Below, one piece after another: positions 1,480 through 33,698 of a stretch of 64,000 bases of DNA (position 1 is the stretch's first letter; every line of letters starts with the position of its first letter). The notes under the pieces were generated by a model. It had not been told where the DNA came from. It saw nothing but the letters and a program-made list of their open reading frames with translations, and did not search any database. The position numbers and the translations under genes are program-made. Source of the stretch: Chloroflexota bacterium (GTDB lineage: Bacteria > Chloroflexota > Dehalococcoidia > UBA2979); assembly GCA_947479915.1 (NCBI GenBank), contig CANKAU010000001.1, forward strand, positions 89,977 through 153,976, given 5' to 3'.

Positions 1480-3014
1480 CCGGACGTGCCTCCTTCGATC
1501 CGCAGCCCGCGCCGCGCGATGCCTCGGGCGCTCTGCACCCAGCGCGTCATGCCGCCGCTGCCGCCACTGGAGGCGGGATCCTTGGCGTTCGTCGCGATGA
1601 TCTGCGCCGCGAGTGCGCCCGCGATCAGCGCGACGTCCAGCCGAGGGTCGTCCTCGGACGCTGCCGGCATGGTGAACGTCGACTCCAGCCAGCCGGTCGA
1701 GACGTCGCCCGACAGGAAGTCGGGGTGCTCGAACAGTGCGAGGTGGAACGGGACGTTCGTCTGCACGCCCGAGATGACGAGGTCACGCAGGGCACGGCGC
1801 ATGCGCTCGATGGCGCGGTCGCGCGTCTCCGCCCACACGATGAGCTTGCCGAGCAGCGAGTCGTAGAAGACCGGCACATCAAGCCCGCTGTAGAGCATGG
1901 TGTCGAAGCGCACCCCCGGCCCCGTGGGGTAGTCGACGAAGTCGATGAGACCGACCGAAGGCGCGAAGTTCGCGTAGGGGTCCTCGCCGTTGATGCGGCA
2001 CTCGATCGCCCAGCCGGTCGGCGTGACGGTTGAGGGGCCCTCAGGGAGCATCTCGCCGTTCGCGACCGCGATCTGCAGCGCGACGAGGTCGACGCCGCCG
2101 CAGACCAGCTCGGTGACGGGGTGCTCCACCTGCAGGCGTGCGTTCACCTCGAGGAAGTAGAACTCGCCGTTGCGGTCGAGGAGGAACTCCACGGTGCCTG
2201 CGTTGCGGTAGCCGCAGGACTTGGCGGCTGCGATCGCCGCCGCGCAGAGGCGTTCGCGGATCTCCGGCGTGACGGCGACGGACGGCGCCTCCTCGAGGAG
2301 CTTCTGGTTGCGCCGCTGGATCGAGCACTCGCGCTCGCCGAAGGCACGGACGTTGCCGTGCGCGTCCGCGACGATCTGCACCTCGATGTGCCGCGCGGGT
2401 GAGACGTATCGTTCGAGGAAGATCGTGGCGTCGCCGAAGGAGGATGCGGCCTCGTTGCCCGAGGCGCGCATAGCGGCCTGGAGATCCTCGGGCCGCTCCA
2501 CGAGGCGGATGCCGCGCCCGCCGCCGCCTGCCGAAGCCTTCACCATCAGCGGGAAGCCGATGCGGGCGGCCTCGCGTTCCGCGGTCGCGAAGTCGTCCGC
2601 GCTGATGTCGTTCGCGCCGGGGACGATCGGGACGCCGGCGGCTTCCATCAGGCGCCGCGCGGATACCTTGCCGCCGAGGGCGCGCATGGCGTCGGCGGTG
2701 GGGCCGATGAACGTGATGCCGGCTTCCTCGCACGCATCGACGAACCGGGCGTTCTCCGACAGGAAGCCGTAACCCGGGTGGATGGCGTCGGCACCCGTTT
2801 GGCGCGCCGCCTCGATGATCCTGTCGATGACGAGGTAGGACTCCAGCGCGGGGCCGGGGCCGATGCGCACGGCGAAGTCGGCGTTGCGGACGTGCAAGGC
2901 GTTGCGGTCGGGGTCGGAGTAGACGGCGACGGTCTCGATGCCGAGTTCGCGGCACGTCCGCTGGATGCGTAGCGCGATCTCACCACGATTGGCGATGAGC
3001 ACCCGCTTGATCAT
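1452..3014 (-). CDS. accC: biotin carboxylase (acetyl/propionyl-CoA carboxylase alpha subunit, BC domain)
   Basis: 520-aa ORF starting MIKRVLIANRGEIALRI, an ATP-grasp biotin carboxylase N-terminus. The BC domain ends near ...PDFLSGDVSTGWLE and is followed by a roughly 70-aa tail. Confidence 0.85.
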
Positions 3015-6544: not shown

Positions 6545-6622
6545 GTGGTGGGCGGTACTGGATTCGAACCAGTGACCTCAGCGATGTCAACGCTGCGCTC
6601 TAACCAACTGAGCTAACCACCC
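6545..6622 (-). tRNA. tRNA-Val (anticodon GAC)
   Basis: Manual fold: acceptor GGGTGGT/ACCGCCC, anticodon loop TTGACAT, T-arm ACTGG TTCGAAT CCAGT, CCA encoded. Confidence 0.8.
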
Positions 6623-6655
6623 GCGACGCCACCGGTGAACGGTGCGATGTAGGGA

Positions 6656-6684
6656 AGGCTATGCGACCACCGGGTCATCGTCAA
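6656..6684 (-). promoter_or_regulatory. putative sigma70-like promoter for tRNA-Val (TTGACG-17-TAGCCT on minus strand)
   Basis: Read directly on the minus strand; it lies about 33 nt upstream of the tRNA 5' end. Confidence 0.35.
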
Positions 6685-6761
6685 AGGGCAGACCTCGGCG
6701 ATGTCGGACGCATGCATTTGTAGCGTGCGAGAGAACGGATCACTTCGCTGTTCGCTTTTCG

Positions 6762-6790
6762 TTGACACGCGATCGGGCCGCTGCTACCTT
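6762..6790 (+). promoter_or_regulatory. putative sigma70-like promoter for tRNA-Lys (TTGACA-17-TACCTT)
   Basis: Consensus -35 TTGACA, a 17-nt spacer and a TAnnnT -10 that ends about 8 nt before the tRNA 5' end. Confidence 0.45.
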
Positions 6791-6798
6791 CCTGCCGC

Positions 6799-6873
6799 GG
6801 GCCTCTAGCTCAATGGCAGAGCAGCTGACTCTTAATCAGCCGGTTCCCGGTTCAAGTCCGGGGGGGCTCACCA
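6799..6873 (+). tRNA. tRNA-Lys (anticodon CTT)
   Basis: Manual fold: acceptor GGGCCTC/GGGGCTC, anticodon stem GCTGA/TCAGC with loop CTCTTAA, T-arm CCCGG TTCAAGT CCGGG, CCA encoded. Confidence 0.8.
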
Positions 6874-6945
6874 AAACGAACGCGAACCCGTGACAGCGGG
6901 AGTTCGTCGTACCTCGGGGAAGGTACGACGAACGGCCAATCCGAT

Positions 6946-7030
6946 GGGGAAGTGTCGGAACTGGCAGACGAGCGTGACTTAGGATCACGTGCCGCAAGGC
7001 GTAGGAGTTCGAGTCTCCTCTTCCCCACCA
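6946..7030 (+). tRNA. tRNA-Leu (anticodon TAG), long variable arm
   Basis: Acceptor GGGGAAG/CTTCCCC, anticodon loop CTTAGGA, variable arm GTGCCGCAAGGCGT, T-arm AGGAG TTCGAGT CTCCT, CCA encoded. Confidence 0.8.
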
Positions 7031-12077: not shown

Positions 12078-13265
12078 ATGTCGCTGCAGGTGATCGAACC
12101 GCGGATCCGTGGGTTTATCTCGCTCACGGCGCACCCTGAGGGCTGCGCAGTCAATGTCCGCGAGCAGCGCGAGGTCGTCCGGCAGGCCGGCATCACGGGC
12201 CACATCGGCACCGCACTCGTGATCGGCTCGTCCACGGGCTACGGGCTCGCCAGCGCGCTCGTCTCGTGCTTCGGCTACGGGGCGGAGACGCTGGGCGTCT
12301 GCTTCGAGAAGGAGCCCGAGGAGTCCAAGCCCGGCACCGCCGGCTGGTACAACCTCGCCGAGGCGCACCGCCTCGCCCGCGAGGAGGGCCGCGTCTTCGA
12401 GACGATCAACGGCGACGCCTTCTCCACCGAGGTGAAGCAGCAGGTCGTCGATGCCCTGCGCCGCCTCGGCCCCGTCGACCTCGTCATCTACTCGCTCGCC
12501 GCGCCGCGCCGTCGGGACGCGACGGGGACGATCTGGAACAGCACCCTGAAGCCGATCGGCCGCCCGTACACCGGGAAGGCGTTCGACCTGCGCGGCGAAG
12601 CGGTGACGGAAGCCTCGATCGAGGCGGCGAACGACGAGGAAATCGCCAGCACCGTGAAGGTGATGGGCGGCGAGGACTGGTCCGACTGGCTCGAGCTGCT
12701 CCTCGCCGAGGGCCTGCTCGCGCCCGGTGCCCGCAGCGTCGCCTACTCCTACATCGGCCCCGAACTGACCGCAGCGATCTACCGCGACGGCACGATCGGT
12801 CACGCCAAGGAGCACCTTGAAGAGACGGGGCACACGCTGGACGCGCGGCTGAAGGCGGCCGTCGGCGGGGACGCGTGGGTCAGCGTGAACAAGGCCGTCG
12901 TGACGCAGGCCTCGGCCGCGATCCCTGCCGTGCCGCTGTACCTGAGCGTGCTGATGAAGCTCATGAAGGAGCGGGGCACGCACGAGGGCCCGATCGAGCA
13001 GATCGTGCGGATGTTCCGTGACCACACCGGCCCGGGCGCGATGCCCACGCTCGACGCGAAGGGGCGCATCCGCCTCGACGACCTCGAGATGCAACCCGAC
13101 ATCCAGGCGGAGATCGCGGGGATCTGGGAAGACCTGACGACCGAGAACTTCCGTGCGCAGTCCGACTACGCCGGCTACCAGTCCGACTTCCACCGGCTCT
13201 TCGGCTTCGACGTCCCCGGCGTGGACTACACCGCCGCGACCGAGGTCAACCGACCGCTGGTGTAG
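12078..13265 (+). CDS. fabV: trans-2-enoyl-CoA/ACP reductase (FabV/TER family)
   Basis: MSLQVIEPRIRGFISLTAHPEGCAVNV...VIGSSTGYGLASAL is the characteristic FabV N-terminus. GGAGGG RBS. Confidence 0.85.
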   Translation: MSLQVIEPRIRGFISLTAHPEGCAVNVREQREVVRQAGITGHIGTALVIGSSTGYGLASALVSCFGYGAETLGVCFEKEPEESKPGTAGWYNLAEAHRLAREEGRVFETINGDAFSTEVKQQVVDALRRLGPVDLVIYSLAAPRRRDATGTIWNSTLKPIGRPYTGKAFDLRGEAVTEASIEAANDEEIASTVKVMGGEDWSDWLELLLAEGLLAPGARSVAYSYIGPELTAAIYRDGTIGHAKEHLEETGHTLDARLKAAVGGDAWVSVNKAVVTQASAAIPAVPLYLSVLMKLMKERGTHEGPIEQIVRMFRDHTGPGAMPTLDAKGRIRLDDLEMQPDIQAEIAGIWEDLTTENFRAQSDYAGYQSDFHRLFGFDVPGVDYTAATEVNRPLV

Positions 13266-13278
13266 CCCCGCTCGCCGG

Positions 13279-14652
13279 CTACACCGTCGGCGTCTCGTCC
13301 TCGGCGGCAGTCTCGGTAGGCTCCGCGAGTGATGGCACAAGGTCGCCGAGCGTAACGACGCCCTCAGTGCCCAGAATGCGTGCCCGGATCGCCGCGAGGC
13401 TCTCGTCCGAGGCGCCTTCCAGCGCCGTCACTGCGGCCGCGAAGAGCGCGCGCGCCGGGAGCACCGCATAGCGGGTGGCCTCGGCGGCGACGCGGAGCGA
13501 GTCTTCGATCTCGCGCTGGCGCTCGGCGGGGCTCGACATGGACTGGCCGTTCACGATGAGCAGTCCACGCGGTGCGACTGCTCGCTGCGCGATCACCCCG
13601 TCCAACCGCTGCCGCAGCCGATAGTGCGCCGACATGCCGACTGCCTCGGTCGAGGCGGCCGCGACGAGGTGCACCTGCGTCTCGCCGTCGAGCAGCACGG
13701 CATGGCCCTCCGGTGTTAGTCCGCGCTCGAAGCCGATCGCCTCCGCGCACGTGAGCGCCGCCGCGAGCAGGGTGGCGTCACCCTGCGCCCAGACGACGTC
13801 GCGCACGGCCGCCCGCTCGGTCAGCGCCGCCTGAGCCTCGTCGAGGGCCGTCTCCGCCTGCTCGACGGCGCTGCGTGCCCGCTCAACCGCGTCCTGGCGC
13901 TCTTCGAGGCCCGGGACGGCGAGGTCGCTCGCCCAGTACGGCGCGCTCGCGGATGACGTGCCCAGCAGCGCCTCGACGGCGCGGCCGATGGCGGCGCCCT
14001 CGTCCGAGGCGAACCAGTCCTCACCGGCGTGGCGCGGGGGCGGCATGAAGACCACCCGGCCGTTCAGTACCGGGAACTCAACACCGATCGGCGCGCCGCC
14101 GGCGGAGCGGAGGAACACCTTCGCGTGGCGGGCGAAGCCCGGTGCACGGTCATCGAAGTACAGCCGGTACAGCAGGTCGCGCTGGTAGGTCTCGTAGACC
14201 GCGACGAACGGATGGTCGTGGTCCACGACCGCCGCCTGCACGCCCTCGCCGGCGGGCATCGTCGCCGCGTCCCATGCGAGGCCCGCCGGGGCCGGGATCG
14301 CCCAGTACGAGTCTAGGCCCGTGAACCCGGCGACGCCCGAGAAGTGCGTGGGCGGAAACGCGTAGACGACGAGCGTGGCGCCGCGCTCCAGCGCACGCTG
14401 CACCTCGTCGCGGCGACGCTGGAGGAGCGCTGCGAGGCCCGCCGCACCCTCGACGTTGGCGCCGTTGACGACCGAGCGGTCGGCGAAGGTCAGGAACTCG
14501 CCCTCGCCCCGCGCGGCCTGTCGGATCGTGGCCATCACGCCGCCGACGTCCCAGACGATGGTGTCGTAGTCGAACAGCGCAGGGGCGTTGAGGATGGTGT
14601 GGTTGTCGATCAGGATGCCGGGCAGGCGGTGGCTCAGGGACAGGACGCGCAC
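13279..14652 (-). CDS. hypothetical protein, two domains joined by coiled-coil linker
   Basis: Long ORF with codon-usage-consistent composition. No motif was recognised. A central Ala/Glu-rich coiled-coil segment (ERQDAVERARSAVEQAETALDEAQAALTERAA) is present. Confidence 0.6.
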   Translation of the reverse strand: MRVLSLSHRLPGILIDNHTILNAPALFDYDTIVWDVGGVMATIRQAARGEGEFLTFADRSVVNGANVEGAAGLAALLQRRRDEVQRALERGATLVVYAFPPTHFSGVAGFTGLDSYWAIPAPAGLAWDAATMPAGEGVQAAVVDHDHPFVAVYETYQRDLLYRLYFDDRAPGFARHAKVFLRSAGGAPIGVEFPVLNGRVVFMPPPRHAGEDWFASDEGAAIGRAVEALLGTSSASAPYWASDLAVPGLEERQDAVERARSAVEQAETALDEAQAALTERAAVRDVVWAQGDATLLAAALTCAEAIGFERGLTPEGHAVLLDGETQVHLVAAASTEAVGMSAHYRLRQRLDGVIAQRAVAPRGLLIVNGQSMSSPAERQREIEDSLRVAAEATRYAVLPARALFAAAVTALEGASDESLAAIRARILGTEGVVTLGDLVPSLAEPTETAAEDETPTV

Positions 14653-14797
14653 GCGGGCCTCCTCGTGGGCGATTCGTCGGCGATGGGACGCGGTGGGTCC
14701 GGGTTTGCGGGATTGTATCGCCGCGCCCCCGCTGGCGGGATGCGGCAGGCTCTTCGCACGCCACTACCCGGTGCCGGGGGCCGCTGCTACGCTGATT

Positions 14798-15067
14798 GTG
14801 GTCGTGCTAGGCGGGGAGTTAGCGGTGCCCTGAACCCGCAATCCGCTTTAGCGGGGTTGAATGCCCGTCCGAGATCGATGTCTGAAGGGACTGCAAACGC
14901 CAGGCGGTGTTGAGAGCCTGGTCCTGTGCGGCAACGCCCGGCCAACCCCGTCAGGGCCGGAAGGCAGCAGCGGTACGTCGAACGCGTTGGGTGCCACGGG
15001 ATCGCCGGGTTTGAGCAGGCCAGCGGGCGCAAGCCGGCAGCGTCGAACAATGGCGGGGCACGACCAC
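14798..15067 (+). ncRNA. ffs: signal recognition particle RNA, long (Bacillus-type, Alu domain-containing) form
   Basis: The 5' part GTGCTAGGCGGGGAGTTAGCGGTGCCCTGAACCCGCAATCCGCTTTAGCGGGG closely matches the B. subtilis scRNA Alu domain. The domain IV motif GTCAGGGCCGGAAGGCAGCAGC is at 14950-14972. The terminal helix pairs GGTCGTGC (14800-07) with GCACGACC (15058-65). Confidence 0.75.
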
Positions 15068-15165
15068 CTTCGCCACACACTCGGGCGATGGCCGGGACCA
15101 CCGGCCCGCCCGAGCAGATCACCCGTCATGCCGAGGATGTCCTCCGCCGGGAAGCTAGGGGAACC

Positions 15166-16236
15166 ATGAGCCCCAGGCGAACCAATCCTCGGCCCGCGCG
15201 GCGGCAGACCTCGCGCGCCCGGAGGCTCGGCCTGTCCTCCAAGCCCAAGGCGCCGATCGCGCGCCCGGAGGACATGCCGGACTACCTCCGCCGCCTCGGC
15301 GTGGTGCCGAGGAAGGCGCTGGGCCAGCACTGGCTCGTCGACCAGATCATTCTCGACGACATCGCGGTCGCCGCTGCGCTGACGCCGGACGACGTCGTGC
15401 TTGAGATCGGTGCAGGCCCCGGCGGGCTGACCGAGGAGCTCGCCAAGCGCGGCGCGACCGTGGTCGCCGTCGAGATCGACGAAGAACTCGCTGGCTCCAC
15501 CCGCGCCCGACTCTCGCAGTACGCGCGGCTGCACGTGCTGGCGGCGGACGTCCTCGACTTCGCGCCCGGCGAACTGCTGGCCGAGGCGGGCGTCGAGCCG
15601 CCCTACGTCGCCGTGGGCAATCTGCCGTACTACATCACCCAGCCGATCGTCCGACGCCTGCTGGAGTCCGACCCCGCCCCGACGCGCATCGTCGTCCTCG
15701 TTCAGCGCGAGGTGGCGCAGCGCATGGTCGGCGGCCCGGGACGCGAGTCGTTGCTGTCGCTGTCGGTGAAGGTGTACGGCGTCCCGCGCATGCTCTTCGA
15801 CGTGCCCGCGACGGCGTTCTGGCCGCCGCCGCGCGTGCAGTCCGCCGTAGTGGAGATCACGCGCCTCGATCGGCCTGCGGTCGACCTGACGCCCGAAGAT
15901 CTCGTTGTGTTCTTCCACCTGCTGCGCGCGGGCTTCGCCCAGCCGCGCAAGCAGATCCACAACGTCTTCGGTGAAGAGCTGGGGCTGGAGCCGATCCGGC
16001 TCCGCCGCGTGCTGGACGCGGCTGGAGTTGATCCGGCTGCCCGCGCACAGCACCTCGACCTCGCGGCGTGGGAGCGGCTGTACCACGCCTTCGTCACGCA
16101 CTACCCCGAGGCGATCGAGATGGACGAGGCCGCGATCGCCGCGGCCCTCGGCGGCGACGACGAAGACGAGGACGGCGACGGGCCCGAGGTGTGGGACGAC
16201 GACGACGCCCCGGAAGTGCACGATGACGACGAGTAG
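15166..16236 (+). CDS. rsmA: 16S rRNA (adenine1518-N6/adenine1519-N6)-dimethyltransferase RsmA/KsgA with acidic C-terminal tail
   Basis: KALGQHWL, SAM-binding EIGAGPGGLT and NLPYYIT motifs. The start is set at ATG with AGGGGA 6 nt upstream. A shorter start at MPDYLRR (15274) is possible. Confidence 0.85.
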   Translation: MSPRRTNPRPARRQTSRARRLGLSSKPKAPIARPEDMPDYLRRLGVVPRKALGQHWLVDQIILDDIAVAAALTPDDVVLEIGAGPGGLTEELAKRGATVVAVEIDEELAGSTRARLSQYARLHVLAADVLDFAPGELLAEAGVEPPYVAVGNLPYYITQPIVRRLLESDPAPTRIVVLVQREVAQRMVGGPGRESLLSLSVKVYGVPRMLFDVPATAFWPPPRVQSAVVEITRLDRPAVDLTPEDLVVFFHLLRAGFAQPRKQIHNVFGEELGLEPIRLRRVLDAAGVDPAARAQHLDLAAWERLYHAFVTHYPEAIEMDEAAIAAALGGDDEDEDGDGPEVWDDDDAPEVHDDDE

Positions 16237-17179
16237 CCCTGCCACGGGCGCCGGCGTGCGCCTGATCGCGCCCGCGAAGATCAACCTCGCGTTGGAGGTT
16301 CTGCACCGGCGCCCGGACGGGTACCACGAGGTCGACACCGTCATGACGACGCTCGACCTCGCCGACCGCGTGACGATCACCCAACGCGCAGCGGGCGCGG
16401 GCCTCGAGGTCGTGCTGACAGGCCCCTACGCCGCAGGCATCGACGCGGCGGACGATCTCGCTGGGCGTGCGGCACGGCTGCTGGCCGAGCGACACGACCG
16501 CGCGCCGGACGTGCGCATCGAGGTGGAGAAGCGCATCCCGTCGCCCGCGGGCCTCGGCGGGGGATCCTCCGACGCCGCCGCCGTGCTGCGCGGGCTGAAC
16601 GAGCTCTGGTCCCTCGGCCTCGACGCCGACGCTCTCGCGGCAATGGGCGCGCAGATTGGATCGGACGTCGCGTTCTTCGCGCACGGCGGCACAGCGCGCT
16701 GCACGGGTCGGGGTGACCGCGTGGAGCCACTGCGCGACATGCGCCCGCTCCGGATGCTGATCCTCGTGCCCCCGGTGCCTGCAGGCGAGGCGAAGACCGC
16801 GCGCCGCTACGCCGCGCTCACGCCGCACGACTTCGGACACGGGCACATCTCGCAGCGGCTCGCGCATCGCATCGCGCGCAACGCGCCGCCGCCGACGAAC
16901 GACCTGGTCAACACCTTTGAGCGTGTCATCGAGCGGACGCAGCCGGAGCTGGTGGCGCACTACGCGTCGTACAGCGCCGCGGGCGCGCCGAGGCTGCATC
17001 TCTGCGGCGCCGGGCCGGCCGTCTTCCTGCTGGTGACCGAGGGGGCCAAGATCGCCGAACTGCGGCGCGACTTCGGCATGACCGGCGCCACGGTGATCGA
17101 GGCGCACACGCTGCCTCGACCGGCCGCGCTCAAGATCGAGCGGATCGCTGCCCCCGTGGCCATCGAGGAGCAGGCGTGA
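16223..17179 (+). CDS. ispE: 4-diphosphocytidyl-2-C-methyl-D-erythritol kinase
   Basis: GHMP kinase motif PSPAGLGGGSSDAAA and an AKINL N-terminus. It has the classic ksgA-ispE adjacency and overlaps the ksgA stop by 14 nt. Confidence 0.88.
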   Translation: MTTSSPATGAGVRLIAPAKINLALEVLHRRPDGYHEVDTVMTTLDLADRVTITQRAAGAGLEVVLTGPYAAGIDAADDLAGRAARLLAERHDRAPDVRIEVEKRIPSPAGLGGGSSDAAAVLRGLNELWSLGLDADALAAMGAQIGSDVAFFAHGGTARCTGRGDRVEPLRDMRPLRMLILVPPVPAGEAKTARRYAALTPHDFGHGHISQRLAHRIARNAPPPTNDLVNTFERVIERTQPELVAHYASYSAAGAPRLHLCGAGPAVFLLVTEGAKIAELRRDFGMTGATVIEAHTLPRPAALKIERIAAPVAIEEQA

Positions 17180-18363: not shown

Positions 18364-21219
18364 GTGCGCGCGCGCACCCACGCCGGAAGGGCGGATCGCT
18401 TGCTGGATGCCTTCGTCTCGCTGGACCTCGAAACGACCGGTCTCAACATGGAGACCGATCAGATCATCGAGATCGGGGCCACGCGCTTCGACCGCTCCGG
18501 CGCGTTCGAGAACTTCTCCACGTTCGTCGACCCCGGGCGCGGCATCCCGCGCGAGGTGCGGGAGCTCACGGGCATCGCGGACGCCGACCTGAAGGGCGCC
18601 CCCCGGTTCATCGAGGTTCGCGAGGCGCTCGCGGAGTTCATCGGTGACCGTGCGATCGTCGGGCAGAACATCGCGTTCGACCTGGCGTTCCTGCGCGCGG
18701 AGCAGGTGATCCCTGTCGGCCCTTCCTTCGACACGTGGGAGCTCGCGTCGGTGCTGCTGCCCACGGCGACGCGCCTCAACCTCGCCTCGCTCGCCGCCGC
18801 GGTGGGCGTGCACATGCCCGTCGCGCATCGTGCGCTCGCCGACGCCGAGGCGACGCGCGACATCTTCCTTGCACTGCTCGACAAGCTCGAGGCGCTGCCG
18901 CGCACGCTGCTGCTGGAACTTCGCGCGTTCGCCTCGCGCGCCGACTGGGCGTTCGCCTCGCTGATCGACGACGCGCTCGCGCGCACCGGAGGACACGAGA
19001 ACCTCGACGTCGCGGGAGCGCGCTCGATCTTCTCGGCGCTGCCGCTCCCGCCGGTGCGAATCCAGTACGCGCCGCTGATCCCCCGCGATCCGATCCTGCC
19101 GACGCTGCCCGCCGAGGTCGACGGCCTGTTCACGGCCGCCGCCGCGCGCACTGACCTCCTGCCGCACTACGAGCGCCGCCCGGGGCAGGAGACGATGGCG
19201 CACGCCGTCGCACGCCTCCTCGACGAGGGCGGTACCACGGCGATCGAGGCGGGGACGGGCACCGGCAAGTCGCTGGCCTACCTGCTGCCCGCGCTGCTGC
19301 ACGCGCTGCGCAACGACGACCGTGTCGTGGTGTCCACGCACACGCTCAACCTGCAGGAACAGCTCGCGAACAAAGATCTCCCGGTCGCCTCTGCCCTGGT
19401 CGAGGAACTCGCGGGCGTGGAGCCGGGGACGTTGCGGGCGACCGTGCTCAAGGGCCGCAGCAACTACCTCTGCCTGGAGCGCTGGGCGGGCGTCCGCATG
19501 GATCCTTCGCCGCGCACCGAGCCCGAGGTGCGCCTGTTCGGACGCGTGGCGGCGTGGCTGCCGGAGACGGAGACAGGCGACCTCGCCGAGCTCTACATGA
19601 CCTCGCAGGAGCGCCCCGCCTGGGAACAGCTCAACGCCGAGGGCACCGACTGCCTCCAGCGCCGCTGTGCCTACGTCCGCGACGGATCGTGCTTCCTGCT
19701 GCGAGCGAGGACGCGTGCGGCCTCGGCGCACGTCGTCGTCGTGAACCACTCGCTGCTGCTGGCGAACGCCGCCCGCGCGGATCAGGTGCTGCCGCCGTAT
19801 CGCCACCTCGTCATCGACGAGGCGCACCGCCTGGAGGACGTCGCGACGCAGCACTACGGCGCGTCCTTCTCCGCGCGTGATGTGCGCGATCTGATCGACC
19901 GCCTCGGCCAGACCGACCGCCATGGCGAGGCCGGGTTCGTGCGCCGTCTCCAGGGCATCGGGAGCGGCGAGGCGCTCGCACTGTCACCGCTCGCCGGCCT
20001 CGCGCCGCTCGCGGACCGGCTGGAGATCGCGGTGACGGCGGCGCGCGAGCACGTGCGCCCGCTGGCGGACGCGCTCCGTGCGTTCGCCGACGAGCACGCG
20101 GAGGAGAACGGCGGGCCACGCCGCGAAATCTCGCTGACGGCCGCGCGCCGCGCGCAGCCCGCGTGGGAGGAGGCGGCCGAGGCCGCCCTCAACCTCGACA
20201 TGGCGCTGCAGGTCGTCGGTGAGCGCGTGACGCAGGTGCGGGATGCCGCCGGCGCGCTGCCCGAGGGCATCAGCGAACTCGCCGAGGCCATGCGCGTGGA
20301 GGCCGCGCAGGCCGCGGACGCGCTTGCGGCGGCCCGCGAGACGCTCCGTCGCACCGCGCTTCAGCCTCGGCGCGAGGACATCGCGTGGCTCGCGGTGGGG
20401 GAGGGGGATCAGCGGCTGCACCTCGCGCCGCTGGACGTCTCCGAGCGGCTCGACCACGACCTGTACCGCGATCGCACCTCGATCCTGCTGACGAGCGCCA
20501 CGCTCTCCGCCGCCGGCTCGTTCGACTTCACGCTGGACCGCCTCGGGCTGCGCGAGGCCGACACCCTGGAGGTGCCGTCACCGTTCGACTACCGCAAGGC
20601 GGTCCTGTCGGTGCTGGTCGACGACCTGCCTGAGCCCGGCATGCCCGGCCATGAGCGCGCGCTGCACGAGACGATCGCGGGCGCGGCACGCGCTGCCGGG
20701 GGACGCACGCTGGCGCTATTCACCTCGCACGCCGCGGTGCGCGCCGCCTCCAACGCGCTGCGCGATCTGCTGTCGCGCGACGACATCGTCGTGCTGGCGC
20801 AGGGCATCGATGGCTCACCGGGGCGGCTGCTGCGCCTGCTGGTCGAGCGCCCTCGGACGATCCTCCTGGGTACGGCGGCGTTCTGGGAGGGGATCGACGT
20901 GCAGGGCGACGCGCTGTCGCAGATCCTCGTCACGCGGCTACCGTTCCCCGTGCCGAACGACCCGATTTACGCCGGCCGCGCCGAGCAGTTCAACGACCCC
21001 TTCGGCGAGTTCGCCGTGCCGCAGTCGGTGCTGCGCTTCCGCCAGGGCTTCGGTCGGCTGATCCGTGGGACCACCGACCGCGGTGTGTTCGTGGTCCTCG
21101 ACAGTCGCATCGTGCGACGCAGTTACGGCGAGGTCTTCGTGGACTCGCTGCCCGACTGTGAGGTGCGTCGCCTCCGCGCGGACAACGTGCCGCGTGCAGT
21201 GGAGGACTGGCTGGCGTGA
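18364..21219 (+). CDS. dinG: DinG-family ATP-dependent helicase with N-terminal DnaQ-like 3'-5' exonuclease domain
   Basis: Exonuclease motifs DLETTGL, GQNIAFDLAFL and HRALADA. Helicase motifs GTGTGKSLAYLLPA (Walker A) and VIDEAH. A conserved C-terminal helicase domain is present. The start is probably GTG 18364 or TTG 18400. Confidence 0.85.
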   Translation: MRARTHAGRADRLLDAFVSLDLETTGLNMETDQIIEIGATRFDRSGAFENFSTFVDPGRGIPREVRELTGIADADLKGAPRFIEVREALAEFIGDRAIVGQNIAFDLAFLRAEQVIPVGPSFDTWELASVLLPTATRLNLASLAAAVGVHMPVAHRALADAEATRDIFLALLDKLEALPRTLLLELRAFASRADWAFASLIDDALARTGGHENLDVAGARSIFSALPLPPVRIQYAPLIPRDPILPTLPAEVDGLFTAAAARTDLLPHYERRPGQETMAHAVARLLDEGGTTAIEAGTGTGKSLAYLLPALLHALRNDDRVVVSTHTLNLQEQLANKDLPVASALVEELAGVEPGTLRATVLKGRSNYLCLERWAGVRMDPSPRTEPEVRLFGRVAAWLPETETGDLAELYMTSQERPAWEQLNAEGTDCLQRRCAYVRDGSCFLLRARTRAASAHVVVVNHSLLLANAARADQVLPPYRHLVIDEAHRLEDVATQHYGASFSARDVRDLIDRLGQTDRHGEAGFVRRLQGIGSGEALALSPLAGLAPLADRLEIAVTAAREHVRPLADALRAFADEHAEENGGPRREISLTAARRAQPAWEEAAEAALNLDMALQVVGERVTQVRDAAGALPEGISELAEAMRVEAAQAADALAAARETLRRTALQPRREDIAWLAVGEGDQRLHLAPLDVSERLDHDLYRDRTSILLTSATLSAAGSFDFTLDRLGLREADTLEVPSPFDYRKAVLSVLVDDLPEPGMPGHERALHETIAGAARAAGGRTLALFTSHAAVRAASNALRDLLSRDDIVVLAQGIDGSPGRLLRLLVERPRTILLGTAAFWEGIDVQGDALSQILVTRLPFPVPNDPIYAGRAEQFNDPFGEFAVPQSVLRFRQGFGRLIRGTTDRGVFVVLDSRIVRRSYGEVFVDSLPDCEVRRLRADNVPRAVEDWLA

Positions 21220-23841: not shown

Positions 23842-24669
23842 GTGGTCGTTGTGTCCGCACACCCCGCCGCTGCTTCGCCGGGATCAAGCGAACTCGCCGC
23901 GCTCGAGGCGCAGGTGGGTGTGACCTTCCATAACGTCGCGCTGCTCCGCGAGGCCCTGACCCACCCGTCCTACGCCAACGAGCATCAGGACGACCCCACA
24001 CCCACGAACGAGCGCCTCGAGTTCCTCGGCGACGCCACGCTCGGCCTCGTCGTCGCGCAGGCGCTCTACGCCCGCTTCCCCGAGGTCCAAGAGGGGCGTC
24101 TCACCGAGTGGCGCTCGCAGCTCGTCTGCGGTCCGACGCTCTCCCGCATCGCCGTCGATGAACTCGACCTCGGGCCGTGGCTCCGCCTCGGGCGGGGCGA
24201 GGAGCAGACCGGCGGCCGAGAGCGCGAGGGCAACCTGGAACGCGCCTACGAGGCGATCGTGGGGGCGGTGTACCTCGACCAGGGGCTGGAGGTGGTGCGC
24301 GACTTCGTGACGCGCACGCTGGCCGACGACCTGGAGGCGCTGACCCGCGACCCGGACATCCTCAACCCGAAGGGGGCGCTGCAGCAGATCGCGCAGGACC
24401 GCTTCGGACGCCCCGAGTACGTGCTGGTGACGGCCGACGGGCCGGAGCACGAGCGCCACTTCAACGTCGAGGTTCGCATCGGCGGCGAGACGCTGGGCCA
24501 CGGCAGCGGGACCAGCAAGCAGGAAGCGGAGAAGGAGGCGGCGCGCGAGGCGCTGCCCACTCTTCGTGCACGCCTGGTCGCAGACGCGGCCGGCGGGCAA
24601 GCCCCACCGGGCGCACAGGCTAACGACAACCGACCCGATGGCGGGCACCGACCTGAAAGCGGGGCATAG
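23842..24669 (+). CDS. rnc: ribonuclease III
   Basis: RNase III signature ERLEFLGDATL, followed by a dsRBD (PKGALQQ...GSGTSKQEAEKEAA). There is no ATG; the start is placed at GTG 23842. Confidence 0.85.
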   Translation: MVVVSAHPAAASPGSSELAALEAQVGVTFHNVALLREALTHPSYANEHQDDPTPTNERLEFLGDATLGLVVAQALYARFPEVQEGRLTEWRSQLVCGPTLSRIAVDELDLGPWLRLGRGEEQTGGREREGNLERAYEAIVGAVYLDQGLEVVRDFVTRTLADDLEALTRDPDILNPKGALQQIAQDRFGRPEYVLVTADGPEHERHFNVEVRIGGETLGHGSGTSKQEAEKEAAREALPTLRARLVADAAGGQAPPGAQANDNRPDGGHRPESGA

Positions 24670-27600
24670 GTGTACCTGAGGCGACTCGAGGTTCACGGCT
24701 TCAAGGCGTTCGCGGACCGTCAGCGGTTCGAGTTCGGGCCGGGCATGACCGTCATCGCGGGGCCGAACGGCTCCGGCAAGTCGAACGTCGCCGATGCGCT
24801 CCGCTGGGCGCTCGGTGAGCAGTCGGCGAAGCAGATCCGCGCCCGCAAGACCGAGGACGTGATCTTCTCGGGCTCGGACAAGCGCCGTCAGATGGGCCTC
24901 GCGGAGGTCACGCTCTACCTCGACAACTCGGACGGCTGGATGCCGATCGACTTCGCCGAGGTTGCCGTGACGCGCCGGGCGCACCGCTCGGGCGAGAACG
25001 AATACCTGATCAACAACCAGCACGTTCGCCTGTCGGACGTGCTGGATCTGTTCCGACGCGCGCAGGTCGGCCAGAACTCCTACGCGCACATGTCGCAGGG
25101 CCTCGTCGACGAGGTCCTGGCGCTGCGCCCGCAGGATCGCCGTGAGTTGATCGAGGAAGCCGCGGACGTCCGCCGCCACCGCCACCAACTCACGCTCTCG
25201 GAACGCCGCCTCGTGGAGACGCGCGACAATCTGGGCCACGTCCGCATGCTGATCCGCGAGGTGGAGCCGCGCCTGCGCGCCCTCGCACGACAGTCGCGCC
25301 GTGCCGCTCGCTACCAGGAGCTCGCCGCCGACCTCTCGGACGCGCTGCAGGTGGTGCTCGAAGCCGAGCTGCGCGAAGCGCTCGAGGTGCGGACGGCGTC
25401 ACAGGCTACGCACGACCAGCAGGCGCAGGCGTTCAACGCCGCCCGCGCTGAGCTCCAGAAGACTGAGGCCCGTCTGAAGACGGTCGAAGAGAGCCTCCTC
25501 GCCCGTCGCACGGCCCTCGAGGCGGCGCAGGCGCGCGAGCGCGAGCTGGCCGAAGAAGGCCTGCGACTCGAGCAGGCCGTCGCGCTGGCCGCACAGCGAC
25601 TCGAGCTGCTCGCGGTGCGCCGCGCGGAACTCGAGGCGGCGATCGCCGTTGAGGACGTCCCGGCCGACGACGCGAGCAGCATCGACGCTGTGATCGCGGA
25701 GCTGGAAGGCGCGCTGACCGCCGCTCAGACGGAGCTCGCCCGCACCCGAGAGGCGCTGACGTCCGCCGACGAGGCGACGCGCACGGTGCTGCGTGACCTG
25801 AACGAGGCCGAGGCGCGCCGCGCCCGCCTTGAGATGGAGATCGAGGACGGCGAGCGCCGCATCCGCGAGGCGCAGGAACGTGCCGATGCCGACGCGAAGG
25901 CGCGCGAGCAGGCCGCTGCGCAGCGGATCGACCTGCTCCGGCTGATCGAGGAGCAGAACGCGCTCGCCGAGGAGCACGCCCGCGCCGGCGCTGCGTTTGC
26001 GGAGGCCTCGCGCCTCGCCCGCGAGCGTCGCGAGTCGGCCGAGCGCCGGCTCGAAGAGGAAGTGCGCGCGGAGCAGGCGGCCGTCGAGGCACTGCGCGCC
26101 GCGCAGCAGCAGGTGAAGCAGCTCGAAGAGCGCCAGCAGTTGATCGCCATGCTGCGCGACTCCGTGCCGAGCGGGAACGCCGGTGCGCAGGCCCTGGTCG
26201 AGGCGAGCAAGCAGCCGGCGACAGAGGAGACCGAGCCGCTCACCGGCATCGTGGACGCTGTGAGCCGTCTCATTCACGTCCCGGACGGCCTCGAGATCGC
26301 GATCGAGGCGGCGCTGGCGGAGCACCTCTCCGCGGTGGTCGTGGAGCACCGCGAGGAGGCGCTTGCCGCGCTCGCGTACCTGCGCGACCACGCTTCAGGC
26401 ACCGTTACGGTGTACCCGCTCGATGCGATCGAGCACCGCTACCCGCTGAACCTCTTCAACGAGCGCGGCGTCGTCGGCATCGCATCGAAGCTTGTGCGTT
26501 GCGACCAGAAGTACCGCCCGCTCGTGGACACGCTGCTCGGCCGCGTGATCATCGTCGAAGACCTGAAGGTCGCCGAGCAGATGGTGACGCGCGGCCTCGG
26601 CTCCGTGGTCACGCGTGACGGCACGCTGCTGCGACCGGGCGGATCCATGTACGGCGGTCGCACCGGTGGCGCGGCGGAGCAGTTCTCGCTCGCCCGCGAA
26701 CTTGAGGGTCTGCCCGAGCAGATCGAGGCGGCACAGGCGGCGATCGCCCCCGCGCAGGCACGGGTGGAGCAGACGCGCGCCGTGGTGCTCGACGCACGCG
26801 AGGCGGTCACCGCCGCGCGCAAGGGCGTGGACGAGGCCGAGGAGAAGCGCCGGACCCACGAGGGCACGCGCAACGCGATCGAACGGCGTCACGCGCAGCT
26901 CGAGTCCGAGCTGAAGGCGATCGACCGCCGCCTGGAGCAGGCGCAGGCGGACGGCGCCGCGGCCGGTGCCGAGTGGCGGCAGCGCGTCGAGACGGCGCGC
27001 ACGAACCTCGACGAGGTCACCCAGCGCATCGGTGCGCTCCGCGATCGCTCGGCCGCTGTCGGCGGCGAGCGCGACGCGGCGGCGGAGCAGGTGACGCTCG
27101 CCACGCAGAAGCACGCCTCGGTCGAGGCGGAGCGGCGGTCGCTGATCGCGCAGCGCGATGAGCGTGTGGCGACGCGGAAGGCCGCGCTCGAACGGCTCGA
27201 GGGGCAGCGCGCTCAGCTCGAGGCGCTCGTCCGCGAGCAGGAGGATCTCGACCTCACGCTCCGCGACCGACGCGAGCACCTCGCGAACAACCGCACGGCG
27301 CGCGCCGAGGCGCAGGCCGCGGTCGGCCCGGCCCACGCGGCCACCGCCGACCTCGCCTCCGAGGAGCGCGAACTGGCGGCCGCACGCGGCGACGTGCAGC
27401 GCGCGCTGCTGTCTGCGGAGCGCGAGATGCTGGAGAGCGAGAACCGCCTCCGACAGGCCGCCGAGCGTGTGCAGCGCCTCCACGCAGAGATCGTCGAAGA
27501 GAACATGGTCATCCAGGAGGACGGCACGATCGTCCCCGAGAAGCCGATCGTGCGCCCGCTCGCGGGCCTCGGTGACGACGGCGATGCCGAGGGCGACGAG

Positions 27601-28329
27601 GACGGCGAGTTCGCCGCCGCGGGTGCGATGCCCGTACGCGGTGGCGCCGAGGTCGACGTGCCGGAGCTGCGCGGACGGATCACGGAGCTGCGCGCACAGA
27701 TCCGCTCGCTCGGTCCCGTGAACGTCGAGGCGATGGAAGACCTCACCGCGGAGCAGGAGCGCCACGACTTCCTCGTCGCGCAGGTCGGTGACCTTGAGGC
27801 CGCCGAGGTGGAGCTGCGAGACGCGATCCGCGACCTCAAGAAGCTGATCCGCACGAAGTTCGTGGAGACGTTCCACGTGGTGAACGAGCGCTTCGGCGAG
27901 TACTTCACGCGCTTCTTCGGTGGCGGCCAGGCGGAGCTGCGGCTCGTCGAATCCGACGCGGACGACGAGGACTCGGAGGCGGGCGTCGACATCTTCGCCC
28001 AGCCGCCGGGCAAGCGGATCAGCAACCTCACGGTGCTCTCCGGCGGCGAACGCTCGATGACCTCGGTCGCGCTGCTGTTCGCGCTGCTGTCGGTCAACCC
28101 GGCCCCGGTCGTGGTGCTGGACGAGGTCGACGCGGCGCTGGACGAGGCGAACGTCACGCGATTCGTGGGCACGCTCCTGGAGTTGCGCGAGCGGACCCAG
28201 TTCGTCGTCATCTCGCACAACCGCCGCACGATCGAGGCGGCCGACGCGATCTACGGCGTGTCGATGGGCGACGACTCCGCCAGCCGTGTGCTGTCGCTCA
28301 AGCTGGCCGACCTGCCTCGCACCGCCTAG
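24670..28329 (+). CDS. smc: chromosome segregation protein SMC
   Basis: N-terminal Walker A GPNGSGKSN, long coiled coils, a hinge, and C-terminal LSGGERS and D-loop. 1219 aa. Confidence 0.92.
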   Translation: MYLRRLEVHGFKAFADRQRFEFGPGMTVIAGPNGSGKSNVADALRWALGEQSAKQIRARKTEDVIFSGSDKRRQMGLAEVTLYLDNSDGWMPIDFAEVAVTRRAHRSGENEYLINNQHVRLSDVLDLFRRAQVGQNSYAHMSQGLVDEVLALRPQDRRELIEEAADVRRHRHQLTLSERRLVETRDNLGHVRMLIREVEPRLRALARQSRRAARYQELAADLSDALQVVLEAELREALEVRTASQATHDQQAQAFNAARAELQKTEARLKTVEESLLARRTALEAAQARERELAEEGLRLEQAVALAAQRLELLAVRRAELEAAIAVEDVPADDASSIDAVIAELEGALTAAQTELARTREALTSADEATRTVLRDLNEAEARRARLEMEIEDGERRIREAQERADADAKAREQAAAQRIDLLRLIEEQNALAEEHARAGAAFAEASRLARERRESAERRLEEEVRAEQAAVEALRAAQQQVKQLEERQQLIAMLRDSVPSGNAGAQALVEASKQPATEETEPLTGIVDAVSRLIHVPDGLEIAIEAALAEHLSAVVVEHREEALAALAYLRDHASGTVTVYPLDAIEHRYPLNLFNERGVVGIASKLVRCDQKYRPLVDTLLGRVIIVEDLKVAEQMVTRGLGSVVTRDGTLLRPGGSMYGGRTGGAAEQFSLARELEGLPEQIEAAQAAIAPAQARVEQTRAVVLDAREAVTAARKGVDEAEEKRRTHEGTRNAIERRHAQLESELKAIDRRLEQAQADGAAAGAEWRQRVETARTNLDEVTQRIGALRDRSAAVGGERDAAAEQVTLATQKHASVEAERRSLIAQRDERVATRKAALERLEGQRAQLEALVREQEDLDLTLRDRREHLANNRTARAEAQAAVGPAHAATADLASEERELAAARGDVQRALLSAEREMLESENRLRQAAERVQRLHAEIVEENMVIQEDGTIVPEKPIVRPLAGLGDDGDAEGDEDGEFAAAGAMPVRGGAEVDVPELRGRITELRAQIRSLGPVNVEAMEDLTAEQERHDFLVAQVGDLEAAEVELRDAIRDLKKLIRTKFVETFHVVNERFGEYFTRFFGGGQAELRLVESDADDEDSEAGVDIFAQPPGKRISNLTVLSGGERSMTSVALLFALLSVNPAPVVVLDEVDAALDEANVTRFVGTLLELRERTQFVVISHNRRTIEAADAIYGVSMGDDSASRVLSLKLADLPRTA

Positions 28330-28445: not shown

Positions 28446-29423
28446 GTGAGGCTGTTCGGACGCGGGAAGCAGGCCGAGGAGGAACGCGACCAGGCGACCG
28501 AGCAGGCGCTTGAGCGCACGCGGCGCTCGTTCTTCGGGCGCGTGGCCGGCCTCTTCACCAGCAGCGACATCACTGACGAGACGTGGGAGTCGCTCGAAGA
28601 GGTGCTGATCGGCGCCGACGCTGGCGTGCAGACCGCAATCGAGGTGCTGGACGCTGTCCGCGCCCGCAAGCCGCGTCGCACCGAAGAGCTCCGCGCGATG
28701 CTCGCTGAAGAGCTGACCCGCATCCTCGAGTCCGCGGCCGAGCCGCGCGGCCGCCTCTGGGGGCTGCCCGAAGGCACCGAGGAGCCGTCGAAGCCCTTCG
28801 TGGTGCTCGTCGTCGGCGTGAACGGCAGCGGCAAGACGACCGCGATCGGCCGCCTCGCGTACGCCTACCAGCAGGAGGGTCGTCGTGTGATGGCCGCGGC
28901 CGGTGACACGTTCCGCGCCGCCGCGATCGAACAATTGCAGGAGTGGGGCCGGCGACTCGACTTCGATGTCGTCGCACAGGGGACGGGCGCCGACCCGGCC
29001 GCCGTCGCCTACGACGCGATTGAGGCAGCGCGGGCCCGTGGCCACGACGTGGTGCTGATCGACACGGCGGGCCGCCTGCAAAACAAGCAGAACCTCATGG
29101 ATGAGCTCTCGAAGGTGCGCCGCGTCATCGAACGACACGTCGAGCGCGGCCCCGACGAGGTGCTGCTGGTCCTCGACGCATCGACCGGCCAGAACGGGCT
29201 GTCGCAGGCTCGGGCCTTCGCCGACTCTGCGCAGGTCACCAGCGTGATGCTCACCAAGCTCGACGGCACGGCGAAGGGCGGCATCGTGTTCGCGATCGCG
29301 CGCGAGTTCGGGCTGCCGGTTCGCTTCGTGGGCACCGGCCAGCGCGAGGGCGACCTCGCGCCGTTCGACCCGCGCTCCTTCGTGCAGTCACTCCTCGGCG
29401 ACCCCGCCGCCACCGAGGCCTGA
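28446..29423 (+). CDS. ftsY: signal recognition particle receptor FtsY (short form)
   Basis: SRP GTPase motifs GVNGSGKTT, DTAGR and TKLDGTAKGG. It follows the conserved rnc-smc-ftsY order. Confidence 0.9.
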   Translation: MRLFGRGKQAEEERDQATEQALERTRRSFFGRVAGLFTSSDITDETWESLEEVLIGADAGVQTAIEVLDAVRARKPRRTEELRAMLAEELTRILESAAEPRGRLWGLPEGTEEPSKPFVVLVVGVNGSGKTTAIGRLAYAYQQEGRRVMAAAGDTFRAAAIEQLQEWGRRLDFDVVAQGTGADPAAVAYDAIEAARARGHDVVLIDTAGRLQNKQNLMDELSKVRRVIERHVERGPDEVLLVLDASTGQNGLSQARAFADSAQVTSVMLTKLDGTAKGGIVFAIAREFGLPVRFVGTGQREGDLAPFDPRSFVQSLLGDPAATEA

Positions 29424-31737: not shown

Positions 31738-33698
31738 GCGAAGCGATCGCCGACGCACCGCCCGACGAGGATCAGCGGTTCACGCTCATCGACCGCCTGC
31801 GCGCGATCGACGCTGTCGAATGGGGCGTGATCGCGTTGTTCGCGATCTCGCTGGTGCTGCACCTGTGGAACGTGGGGCCGCGCGCGTATCACCACGACGA
31901 GTCGCAGCACGCCGCCTTCTCGTACTACTTCTTCTCGGGCGCAGGGTACCGGCACGATCCGCTACTGCACGGACCGCTGCAGTTCCACGTGCTCGCGCTG
32001 ATCTTCAAGATCTTCGGTGATACCGACTTCACCGCGCGCGTCTTCCACGGGCTGATGGGCTCGCTGCTGGTGCTGACGCCACTGTGGTTCCGCCGCACGC
32101 TGAGCGGGCCGGGCGTCGTGCTGGCCGCGCTCTTCTTCGTGATCTCGCCGTCGATCCTCTACTACTCGAGGTTCGCGCGAAACGACGTCCCGGTGATCCT
32201 GTTCACGACGATGATGATCGCCGGGACGTGGCGCTATCGGACCGATCAGCGCCTCCGCTGGCTGCTGCTGGTCGCCGCGGGCCTCGCGTTGTCATTCGCC
32301 TCGAAGGAGACGACCTACATCGCGGCCGTGGTCCTGCTGCTGTACCTCAACGGTGCGCTGGCCCACAGCCTGTTCCAGCAGCAGCGTCGAGGCACCCGGG
32401 CCACGCTCCTCGACCGCGTCGCCGACGGCGTGTGGCTGTTCCCCACCGCGTGGCTGTTCGCGGCGCTGTGGCGTCCGCTGGCGCCGCTCCGCGCCCGACT
32501 CCGCCTCGAGGAACGACCGCCCGAGGCTGACGTGCTGGTGGTGGTGGGCACGCTCGTCCTCGGCGAGCTGTCCGCGCTGTCGCGGCTGCCACTCCATGTC
32601 GTGGGCGTCGAGGCAAGCGGCCCCCAGCACACGATGATCGCGACGGCCGTGGTGCTCGTCCTGCTCGCGGCCGCCGCGGGTGTCGGAGCGCTGTGGCGCT
32701 GGGACTGGTGGGTCGCCTGCGCCGCGGTGTTCTTCGCGATCACGGTGCCGCTGTACATGTCGATGGGCACGAACCTGCCCGGCGTCGGCGGGCTGTTCTG
32801 GAACTCACTGAGCTACTGGCTCGATCAGCAGGAGGTCCGCCGCGGCACGCAGCCGTGGTTCTACTACCTGATGATGGTGCCGCTCTACGAAATGCTGATC
32901 CTCATCCCTGGTGCGATCGGCGGCGCATGGCTGGCGATCCGCCGAGGCGACCACTTCGCCGCGATGCTGCTGTGGTGGATGGCGGGCACGCTGCTCGCAC
33001 TGTCCGTGGCCGGCGAGAAGATGCCGTGGCTCACCGTGCATATCGCACTGCCGCTGGTGCTACTCGCCGCGTACGTCCTCGGCCGCGTCTGGCCACGTGT
33101 CGCGAGCCGGATGCGCGAGGGCAGCGGGTCGCTGATGGCGTGGGCGGCGGGCGGCCTCGTGCTGGCGGTGCTCGCGCTGGCGCTGCTCATCACCGTGCGG
33201 ACGGACATCGGCCTGAACATCGGGCATCCGGACACGCCCGTGGAGCCGCTGATCTACGTGCAGACGACGCCGGAACTCCCGCGCCGCGCCACCGAGATCC
33301 AGCGCTGGATCGCCGAGGGCCGTGCGAGCTCGGTGGTGCTGGACGACTCGGACGGCACGGGCATCACCTGGCCGTGGGCGTGGTACCTGCGGCACGAGGG
33401 CATCACGTACCTCGGGGCAGACCAGGTCCAGCAGGGCGTCGACCCGCGGGCGATCGTGATCCGGGCGCGCGGGGATCGCCCGGCACCGAGGTCGCTCATC
33501 GATCGTTCGAGTGACGTGGTCGTCTATCGTCACCGGTGGTGGTTCCCCGAGGAGGGGTACCGCGGCGTGACGTGGACCGACCTGCGCGAAGGCGTCCTGG
33601 ACGGCTCGATGCTGCGGACGTGGGCGGCGTTCGCGTGGAACCGCGGCGACCCGGCGGCAATCGCGTCGCTGGACGGGGAGATCTACTTCCCGCGCTGA
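31734..33698 (+). CDS. TIGR03663-like membrane protein with PMT/ArnT-like (GT-C) N-terminal region
   Basis: 654 aa with the DE dipeptide (HHDESQHA) and HGP tripeptide (LLHGPLQFH) near the N-terminus, and multiple TM segments. ATGA overlap with the upstream gene. Confidence 0.75.
   Translation: MSEAIADAPPDEDQRFTLIDRLRAIDAVEWGVIALFAISLVLHLWNVGPRAYHHDESQHAAFSYYFFSGAGYRHDPLLHGPLQFHVLALIFKIFGDTDFTARVFHGLMGSLLVLTPLWFRRTLSGPGVVLAALFFVISPSILYYSRFARNDVPVILFTTMMIAGTWRYRTDQRLRWLLLVAAGLALSFASKETTYIAAVVLLLYLNGALAHSLFQQQRRGTRATLLDRVADGVWLFPTAWLFAALWRPLAPLRARLRLEERPPEADVLVVVGTLVLGELSALSRLPLHVVGVEASGPQHTMIATAVVLVLLAAAAGVGALWRWDWWVACAAVFFAITVPLYMSMGTNLPGVGGLFWNSLSYWLDQQEVRRGTQPWFYYLMMVPLYEMLILIPGAIGGAWLAIRRGDHFAAMLLWWMAGTLLALSVAGEKMPWLTVHIALPLVLLAAYVLGRVWPRVASRMREGSGSLMAWAAGGLVLAVLALALLITVRTDIGLNIGHPDTPVEPLIYVQTTPELPRRATEIQRWIAEGRASSVVLDDSDGTGITWPWAWYLRHEGITYLGADQVQQGVDPRAIVIRARGDRPAPRSLIDRSSDVVVYRHRWWFPEEGYRGVTWTDLREGVLDGSMLRTWAAFAWNRGDPAAIASLDGEIYFPR

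Follow-up and report, generated by a model that had tools for sequence, protein, structure and literature searches.

A predicted large, Alu-domain signal recognition particle RNA gene upstream of ksgA in a Dehalococcoidia-like Chloroflexota bacterium

The window, a stretch of 64,000 nucleotides with a GC content of about 71%, contains a gap of 513 nt (14653-15165) between a minus-strand open reading frame, the start codon of which ends at 14652, and the ATG of ksgA at 15166. The minus-strand frame (13279-14652, 457 aa) is called in public assemblies, is divergent from the RNA gene described here and gave no match to Pfam or NCBIfam. Search of the window with the Rfam covariance models revealed a match to RF01854 (Bacteria_large_SRP) on the plus strand of the gap, at 14802-15063, with a score of 144.7 bits against a gathering score of 60 bits and an E-value of 6.5e-23. 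The match is untruncated, covering model positions 1-256 of 256, and is the sole SRP-clan match retained in the window; overlapping matches of the same clan scored lower and were discarded, and the small model RF00169 was out-scored at these positions. The first-pass annotation, made from the letters of the DNA, had read the gap as holding a long-form, Alu-domain SRP RNA of roughly 270 nt, and the covariance model bears this out over the full length, Alu domain included, and not merely over the part shared with 4.5S RNA. The size given there for the gap and the coordinates of the motifs were all correct. The core of the gene (ffs) that is common to relatives spans 14800-15065, so that a mature RNA of about 266-270 nt is predicted, with a GC content of 67%. 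Three other assemblies carry an identical region, two of them from ENA (ERZ27280172 and ERZ27263779) and one an NCBI MAG contig (GCA_947471955.1). Together with the covariation among 32 homologues described below, the match makes it almost certain that 14798-15067 is the gene of a large, Bacillus-type SRP RNA of a Dehalococcoidia-like Chloroflexota bacterium. Open reading frames encoding 100-500 aa do overlap the region (14861-15169 on the plus strand, 14787-15122 and 14848-16380 on the minus strand), as they would if it were protein-coding and the match fortuitous. However, such frames are expected in DNA of 70% GC, public gene calls leave the gap around 14798-15067 empty, and the substitutions among homologues track base-pairing and not codon structure; with the E-value above, the probability left to a coding or chance origin is negligible.

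Table 1. Positions of the SRP RNA gene, its structural elements and associated genes in the window
Feature	Position	Strand	Remarks
Extended -10 promoter of ffs, TGcTACGCT	14785-14793	+	TG at 14785-14786, hexamer TACGCT at 14788-14793
ffs, large (6S-type, Alu-domain) SRP RNA, predicted	14798-15067	+	RF01854 match and covariation among 32 homologues
Helix 1, 5' strand GUGGUCGUGC	14798-14807	+	pairs with 15058-15067
Alu 5' domain, helices 2-4	14809-14859	+	covariance-model alignment, high posterior probability throughout
Helix 2	14809-14812 with 14856-14859	+	includes A12 and G62 of the four-base platform
Helix 3	14813-14831	+	Alu 5' domain
Pseudoknot t1, L3 strand AGCGG	14821-14825	+	pairs with CCGCU at 14843-14847
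Position of the UGU junction motif, reading UGA	14831-14833	+	U34, G35, A36, then A37
Helix 4	14835-14855	+	one compensatory pair
Pseudoknot t1, L4 strand CCGCU	14843-14847	+	pairs with AGCGG at 14821-14825
Minor-saddle motif, helix 5 strand C73 G74 A75	14870-14872	+	faces A252 A253 U254 at 15049-15051
Domain IV (helix 8) core GUCAGGGCCGGAAGGCAGCAGC	14950-14971	+	matches the invariant covariance-model consensus
Helix 1, 3' strand GCACGACCAC	15058-15067	+	pairs with 14798-14807
GC-rich hairpin without U-tract	15080-15114	+	in the 98-nt spacer between RNA and ksgA (15068-15165)
ksgA/rsmA, 16S rRNA dimethyladenosine transferase	15166-16236	+	PF00398; TIGR00755, 215.7 bits (cutoff 171)
ispE	16223-17179	+	follows ksgA
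rnc	23914-24669		first gene of the rnc-smc-ftsY cluster
smc	24670-28329		between rnc and ftsY in the cluster
ftsY, SRP receptor	28446-29423	+	TIGR00064, 336.5 bits (cutoff 260.7)

The SRP receptor is encoded in the same window, where ftsY is the last gene of an rnc-smc-ftsY cluster located about 9-14 kb downstream of ffs (Table 1); we take the gene order in B. subtilis to be the same. The FtsY protein consists of SRP54_N and SRP54 GTPase domains without an M domain. When it was used as query against the 64-kb window, ffh was not found, FtsY itself being the sole match. RNase III, the product of rnc, is an enzyme that helps to mature the B. subtilis scRNA. On the 3' side of ftsY lie genes for a DUF2298 membrane protein (29437-31737), a PMT-family glycosyltransferase (31734-33698) and an LPG_synthase_TM protein (33796-34806), and the AT skew at 30-36 kb, where this run of membrane and glycolipid genes (29437-34806) lies, is strongly negative. 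Positions 18400-21219 (13235-16054 in locus L043), which follow ispE and the gene of a PHP-domain protein, encode a 939-aa protein in which an RNase_T/DnaQ-like exonuclease is fused with a helicase of the DEAD/Helicase_C_2 (DinG-like) type. A tRNA cluster at 6546-7030 comprises one gene on the minus strand (Val-GAC) and two on the plus strand (Lys-CTT and Leu-TAG). The KsgA protein has 356 residues. About 35 of these form an N-terminal extension rich in Arg and Pro, which is kept in its closest relatives (that of locus L004 aligns from residue 1), and the C-terminal tail is highly acidic (DDEDEDGD...DDDDAPEVHDDDE). The extension and the tail are both unusual for RsmA, and an alternative start is possible at Met37 (15274).

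The secondary structure was examined by comparison among homologues. A fold of the single sequence had been suggested in the first-pass annotation; the minimum-free-energy structure closes the termini, but its energy is no better than that of shuffled sequences (z = -0.12 for the plus and -0.52 for the minus strand). As any sequence of 67% GC folds strongly, the fold energy is uninformative; single-sequence folding was dropped as a structure test and covariation was used in its place. Alignment of 32 SRP RNAs yielded 278 columns with a mean column identity of 82% and without an additional hairpin, and RNAalifold recovered the expected architecture with compensatory change in 32 of 69 pairs. 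For the pair count, the loop pairs of helix 3 in this structure were swapped for the L3/L4 pseudoknot, resulting in 71 pairs over 32 sequences, and 98.1% of these cells form a standard pair. The 32 compensatory pairs observed compare with 15.7 ± 2.1 in column shuffles, none of which reached 32 in 500 trials, and with 7-11 when the 3' partner was slid by 1-3 columns. We regard the covariation across the 32 homologues as decisive support for the predicted fold.

Compensatory changes were seen in helix 1, helix 4, the proximal and distal parts of helix 5 and the apex of helix 8. Pairing of the two ends of the RNA, also noted in the first-pass annotation, forms a helix 1 of 10 bp in the window; its core of 8 pairs (14800-14807 with 15058-15065) is 100% paired in the 32 sequences, two pairs showing compensatory changes, and the two outer pairs are lineage-specific. 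The apical stem of helix 8 underwent a change from G-C to U-A in 14 of the 32 sequences (pair 163/172). Within domain IV, the strands of the symmetric loop lie on either side of a GCC/GGC stem, capped by a GGAA tetraloop at 14959-14962, and the motif named in the first-pass annotation is present exactly there. Helices 2 and 3 and the pseudoknot are nearly invariant, and their support comes from conservation and the covariance model and not from covariation: between 97 and 99% of cells are paired in helices 2-4, the pairs of helices 2 and 3 are invariant or changed on one side only, and A12, G62 and A63 are invariant across the 32 sequences. No other stretch of the RNA is as conserved as the Alu part.

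Comparison of the Alu domain with the crystal structure of its B. subtilis counterpart revealed close agreement and a few local differences. The Alu-like segment (GUGCUAGGCGGGG...) begins at 14804, 146 nt upstream of the domain IV motif, and the claim that it is nearly identical to the B. subtilis 5' domain was judged against the Rfam consensus and the residue numbering of PMC4231752. With 14798 taken as position 1, the numbering of the 5' domain coincides with that of B. subtilis (A12, G35, A37, G62 and C73-G74-A75). The pseudoknot t1 (24-28 with 46-50) can form five Watson-Crick pairs and is invariant in all 32 sequences, without covariation; a five-base-pair pseudoknot between L3 and L4 is seen in the B. 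subtilis crystal structure (PMC4231752). The junction motif reads UGU in 27 of the 32 Chloroflexota sequences, UCU in three, and UGA in the window and in locus L034. An assembly error was ruled out as the source of UGA, which is identical in the two ENA assemblies and the NCBI MAG contig. The residues U34, G35 and A37 are kept in the window RNA. In B. subtilis U36 is a single bulged-out base, and the sheared G35/A37 pair bends the loop (PMC4231752); the A36 of UGA falls at the position of this bulged-out base, and the G35/A37 pair is retained. The 5' strand of the minor saddle is identical to C73/G74/A75 of B. subtilis. The facing pairs are C/C, G/A and A/G in the Chloroflexota consensus, as in B. 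subtilis, and C/U, G/A and A/A in the window, so that two positions differ from both while all three pairs are still non-Watson-Crick. Comparable minor-saddle variants are present in other relatives. A minor saddle may form in the window RNA, and UGA and the minor-saddle changes are probably tolerated variants. A separate observation concerns nine relatives (loci L015, L017-L019, L022-L024, L031 and L032), which carry an extra nucleotide after UGU (UGUAA, UGUUA or UGUAG; alignment columns 34-38). This spacing resembles that of archaea and eukaryotes, whose extra junction nucleotide has been linked to a U-turn missing in most bacteria (Kempf et al., PMC4231752).

The distribution of the long form was examined at 36 ksgA loci scanned with Rfam, of which 32 belong to Chloroflexota; one of these (L028) has just 146 nt of sequence 5' of ksgA. 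A full-length RF01854 match of 139-195 bits was found upstream of ksgA, on the same strand, in all 31 Chloroflexota loci with enough upstream DNA. These loci span Dehalococcoidia, one Chloroflexia MAG (L034) and unclassified Chloroflexota. Metagenome contigs 166 kb and 330 kb long, as well as the NCBI MAG contig, also encode the exact KsgA protein of the window, and the nearest GTDB species representatives, with KsgA identities of 82-88%, are MAGs from lakes and groundwater that bear the label Chloroflexi or Dehalococcoidia. In 28 of the 31 loci the SRP RNA directly adjoins ksgA, while the gap between the RNA and the ksgA match amounts to about 270 nt in L034, 1.7 kb in L033 and 2.7 kb in L031. 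The long form is thus the norm in the phylum as sampled and no peculiarity of one genome. A further Rfam match in the Dehalococcoidia MAG of locus L018, to the actinobacterial sRNA Ms_AS-4 (1757-1838, minus strand; 72.2 bits, gathering score 50), lies about 1.9 kb upstream of the SRP RNA of that locus.

The idea in the first-pass annotation that a long form is noteworthy outside Firmicutes does not survive this count. Chloroflexota are monoderm. This agrees with the generalisation of a 'Gram-positive type' (PMC4359368). The presence of an Alu domain has been noted to follow neither Gram status nor sporulation (Kempf et al. 2014, PMC4231752). An Alu-bearing form that is universal in the sampled Chloroflexota fits a wide spread among monoderm, Terrabacteria-like lineages and not a peculiarity of Firmicutes. 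We consider ffs of the window an ordinary housekeeping RNA gene of a family already known. Standard Rfam-based pipelines detect large SRP RNA, NCBI PGAP labels such matches 'signal recognition particle sRNA large type', and long SRP RNAs of Chloroflexi are believed to be listed already in Rfam and SRPDB. A literature search, with Rosenblad 2009, Regalia 2002 and the SRPDB surveys outside its coverage, returned no statement of an Alu-type SRP RNA in Chloroflexi. Beyond correct annotation the importance of the gene is small and no long-standing question is opened; the two promoter forms, the predicted absence of a 5' leader, the linkage to ksgA and the UGA variant are of minor, local interest.

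Alignment of 32 upstream regions revealed a promoter-like element immediately 5' of the RNA. A TAnnnT box, mostly TACGAT, lies 6-8 nt upstream of the first conserved base of helix 1 in 32 of 32 aligned loci. Fifteen of these, including the window, carry the TGn extension without TTGAC, another 15 carry a TTGAC -35 element without TGn, none carries both, and two carry neither. Such an either-or pattern is expected of a functional promoter of the sigma-70 type, and the two exclusive forms would make a tidy natural experiment across Chloroflexota in compensation between promoter elements. A generic promoter scan of the window found nothing, as it demands a -35 match and so misses a promoter of the extended -10 form. 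From the position of the box, transcription is predicted to start at about 14799-14801. With a start at about 14800 the primary 5' end would be the mature end, and no 5' leader would be present. We propose that ffs is transcribed from its own extended -10 promoter of the sigma-70 type, making removal of a 5' leader unneeded.

The position of this start bears on whether the whole RNA enters the functional particle. The domain IV region alone would suffice for Ffh binding, and the 270-nt form might then be a precursor that loses its Alu part, leaving a 4.5S-like S-domain fragment as the only functional piece. This is very improbable, given that the Alu part is more conserved than any other stretch, that helix 1 covaries and so keeps the 5' and 3' ends paired, that the promoter puts the predicted start exactly at helix 1, and that the large model beats the small one in clan competition over the full length.

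No canonical terminator was found downstream of ffs by a generic terminator scan of the window. The 98-nt spacer folds with an energy of -47.1 kcal/mol (z = -3.25), and its hairpin at 15080-15114 may act as a partial terminator or as a block to 3' exonucleases. As a conserved terminator the hairpin was rejected, the spacers of relatives being much shorter and dissimilar. The first six positions past helix 1 are rich in T (0.30 against a background of 0.15). The 3' end would arise by weak termination or by trimming past helix 1, possibly aided by the hairpin, and read-through transcripts would run on into ksgA-ispE. In the window, ksgA is probably reached by such read-through from the ffs promoter. 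In relatives where an in-frame start past the RNA was found, the first one is mostly 34-49 nt downstream, a spacer too short for a separate ksgA promoter. The tight linkage of ffs and ksgA makes the pair a candidate for co-transcription. Since the genes lie on the same strand, adjoin in 28 of 31 loci and are separated by no canonical terminators, it is possible, and we suggest it tentatively, that in most Chloroflexota the ffs promoter drives a single transcription unit made up of the SRP RNA and ksgA-ispE. If so, the SRP RNA would be the 5' portion of the ksgA mRNA, freed by 3' processing, and its supply would be coupled to that of a 30S-maturation factor and an isoprenoid-pathway kinase.

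Helix 8 of SRP RNA binds the M domain of Ffh, and the RNA scaffolds the Ffh-FtsY GTPase cycle. By analogy, domain IV at 14950-14971 is the predicted binding site of the Ffh M domain, which the S domain would engage through helix 8 and its GGAA tetraloop. HU occurs in nearly all bacteria. A tblastn search of the 64-kb window with approximate query sequences did not find an HU/IHF-like ORF (best E about 1). The first-pass annotation had expected a histone-like Alu-binding protein as the usual partner of the long form. This idea is dated, and such a protein does not define the long form: HBsu as an Alu-binding subunit is disputed, the B. subtilis Alu domain closes protein-free, and a specific SRP role of HBsu/HU1 'could not be established' (PMC4231752). 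HU or HBsu, being nearly universal and without an established role in SRP, is a marker that does not discriminate. The bacterial Alu domain folds to a closed form without protein (PMC4231752), and in the window RNA helices 1-4 and proximal helix 5 would likewise fold to a closed, protein-free conformation, in which helix 1, the L3/L4 pseudoknot of five base pairs and the minor-saddle contact between helices 3 and 5 hold the fold together.

Among bacteria, we know of experimental demonstrations of elongation arrest for B. subtilis only and for no Chloroflexota particle. As summarised in PMC8137916, Beckert et al. (2015) found that the B. subtilis Alu domain docks in the factor-binding site of the ribosome, blocks elongation and contacts the L7/L12 stalk base. 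The Alu domain of the window RNA would dock in the same site and slow elongation during targeting ('dock and block'), and we consider it likely that it has this arrest function; the hint in the first-pass annotation that the particle is capable of arrest is thus a fair deduction from the conserved motifs. The differences between the window RNA and the consensus of the phylum, at U36 and two positions of the minor saddle, leave some room for a genuine large SRP RNA whose Alu domain serves without elongation arrest, in end protection, as an aid to folding or assembly, or in arrest-free binding to the ribosome; in a variant of the same idea, arrest may be weakened by the change from UGU to UGA together with the minor-saddle changes. 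This alternative seems unlikely to us. Over 32 divergent genomes no change is seen in the junction residues or in the L3/L4 pseudoknot, which faces the ribosome, and this implies selection for more than the protection of the RNA ends. The change at U36 affects a base that is bulged out in B. subtilis, with the G35/A37 pair kept (PMC4231752), and similar minor-saddle variants occur in other relatives. A large SRP RNA with its own predicted promoter and an Alu domain that would dock and block as in B. subtilis is very probably the best explanation of the locus as a whole.

Among known systems, the closest is the B. subtilis scRNA, a 6S-type RNA of family RF01854 with the same helix 1, helices 2-4, long helix 5 and helix 8 with a GGAA tetraloop, the same five-base-pair AGCGG/CCGCU pseudoknot and no helix 6. 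In the window RNA helix 6 is likewise absent, the 270 nt containing no insertion with respect to the 256-position bacterial model, and the lengths are close to each other (about 270 nt against 271 nt). The differences lie in the host, a Chloroflexota of about 71% GC compared with a member of the Firmicutes, in the junction motif (UGA against UGU) and in the 3' strand of the minor saddle, which is A-A-U in the window and G-A-C in both B. subtilis and the Chloroflexota consensus. The genomic site also differs, as ffs lies directly 5' of ksgA-ispE, unlike scr of B. subtilis, which is presumably located upstream of dnaX. At the 5' end, the promoter of the window abuts helix 1 and no leader is predicted, whereas the B. 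subtilis scRNA starts as a precursor of 354 nt, which RNase III and RNase J1 cleave and RNase PH trims (PMC1935012). The E. coli-type 4.5S RNA (RF00169) shares the domain IV/helix 8 core (GUCAGG...GGAA...AGCAGC) and the distal segment of helix 5; at about 114 nt it is without helices 1-4, in contrast to the complete Alu domain of the window RNA. The archaeal 7S SRP RNA shares helix 1, the extended pseudoknot between L3 and L4 and an Alu domain that is free of protein (PMC4231752). It has in addition helix 6, SRP19 binding and the extra U-turn nucleotide at the junction, whereas the window RNA has no space for a helix 6 and fits the bacterial large model best.
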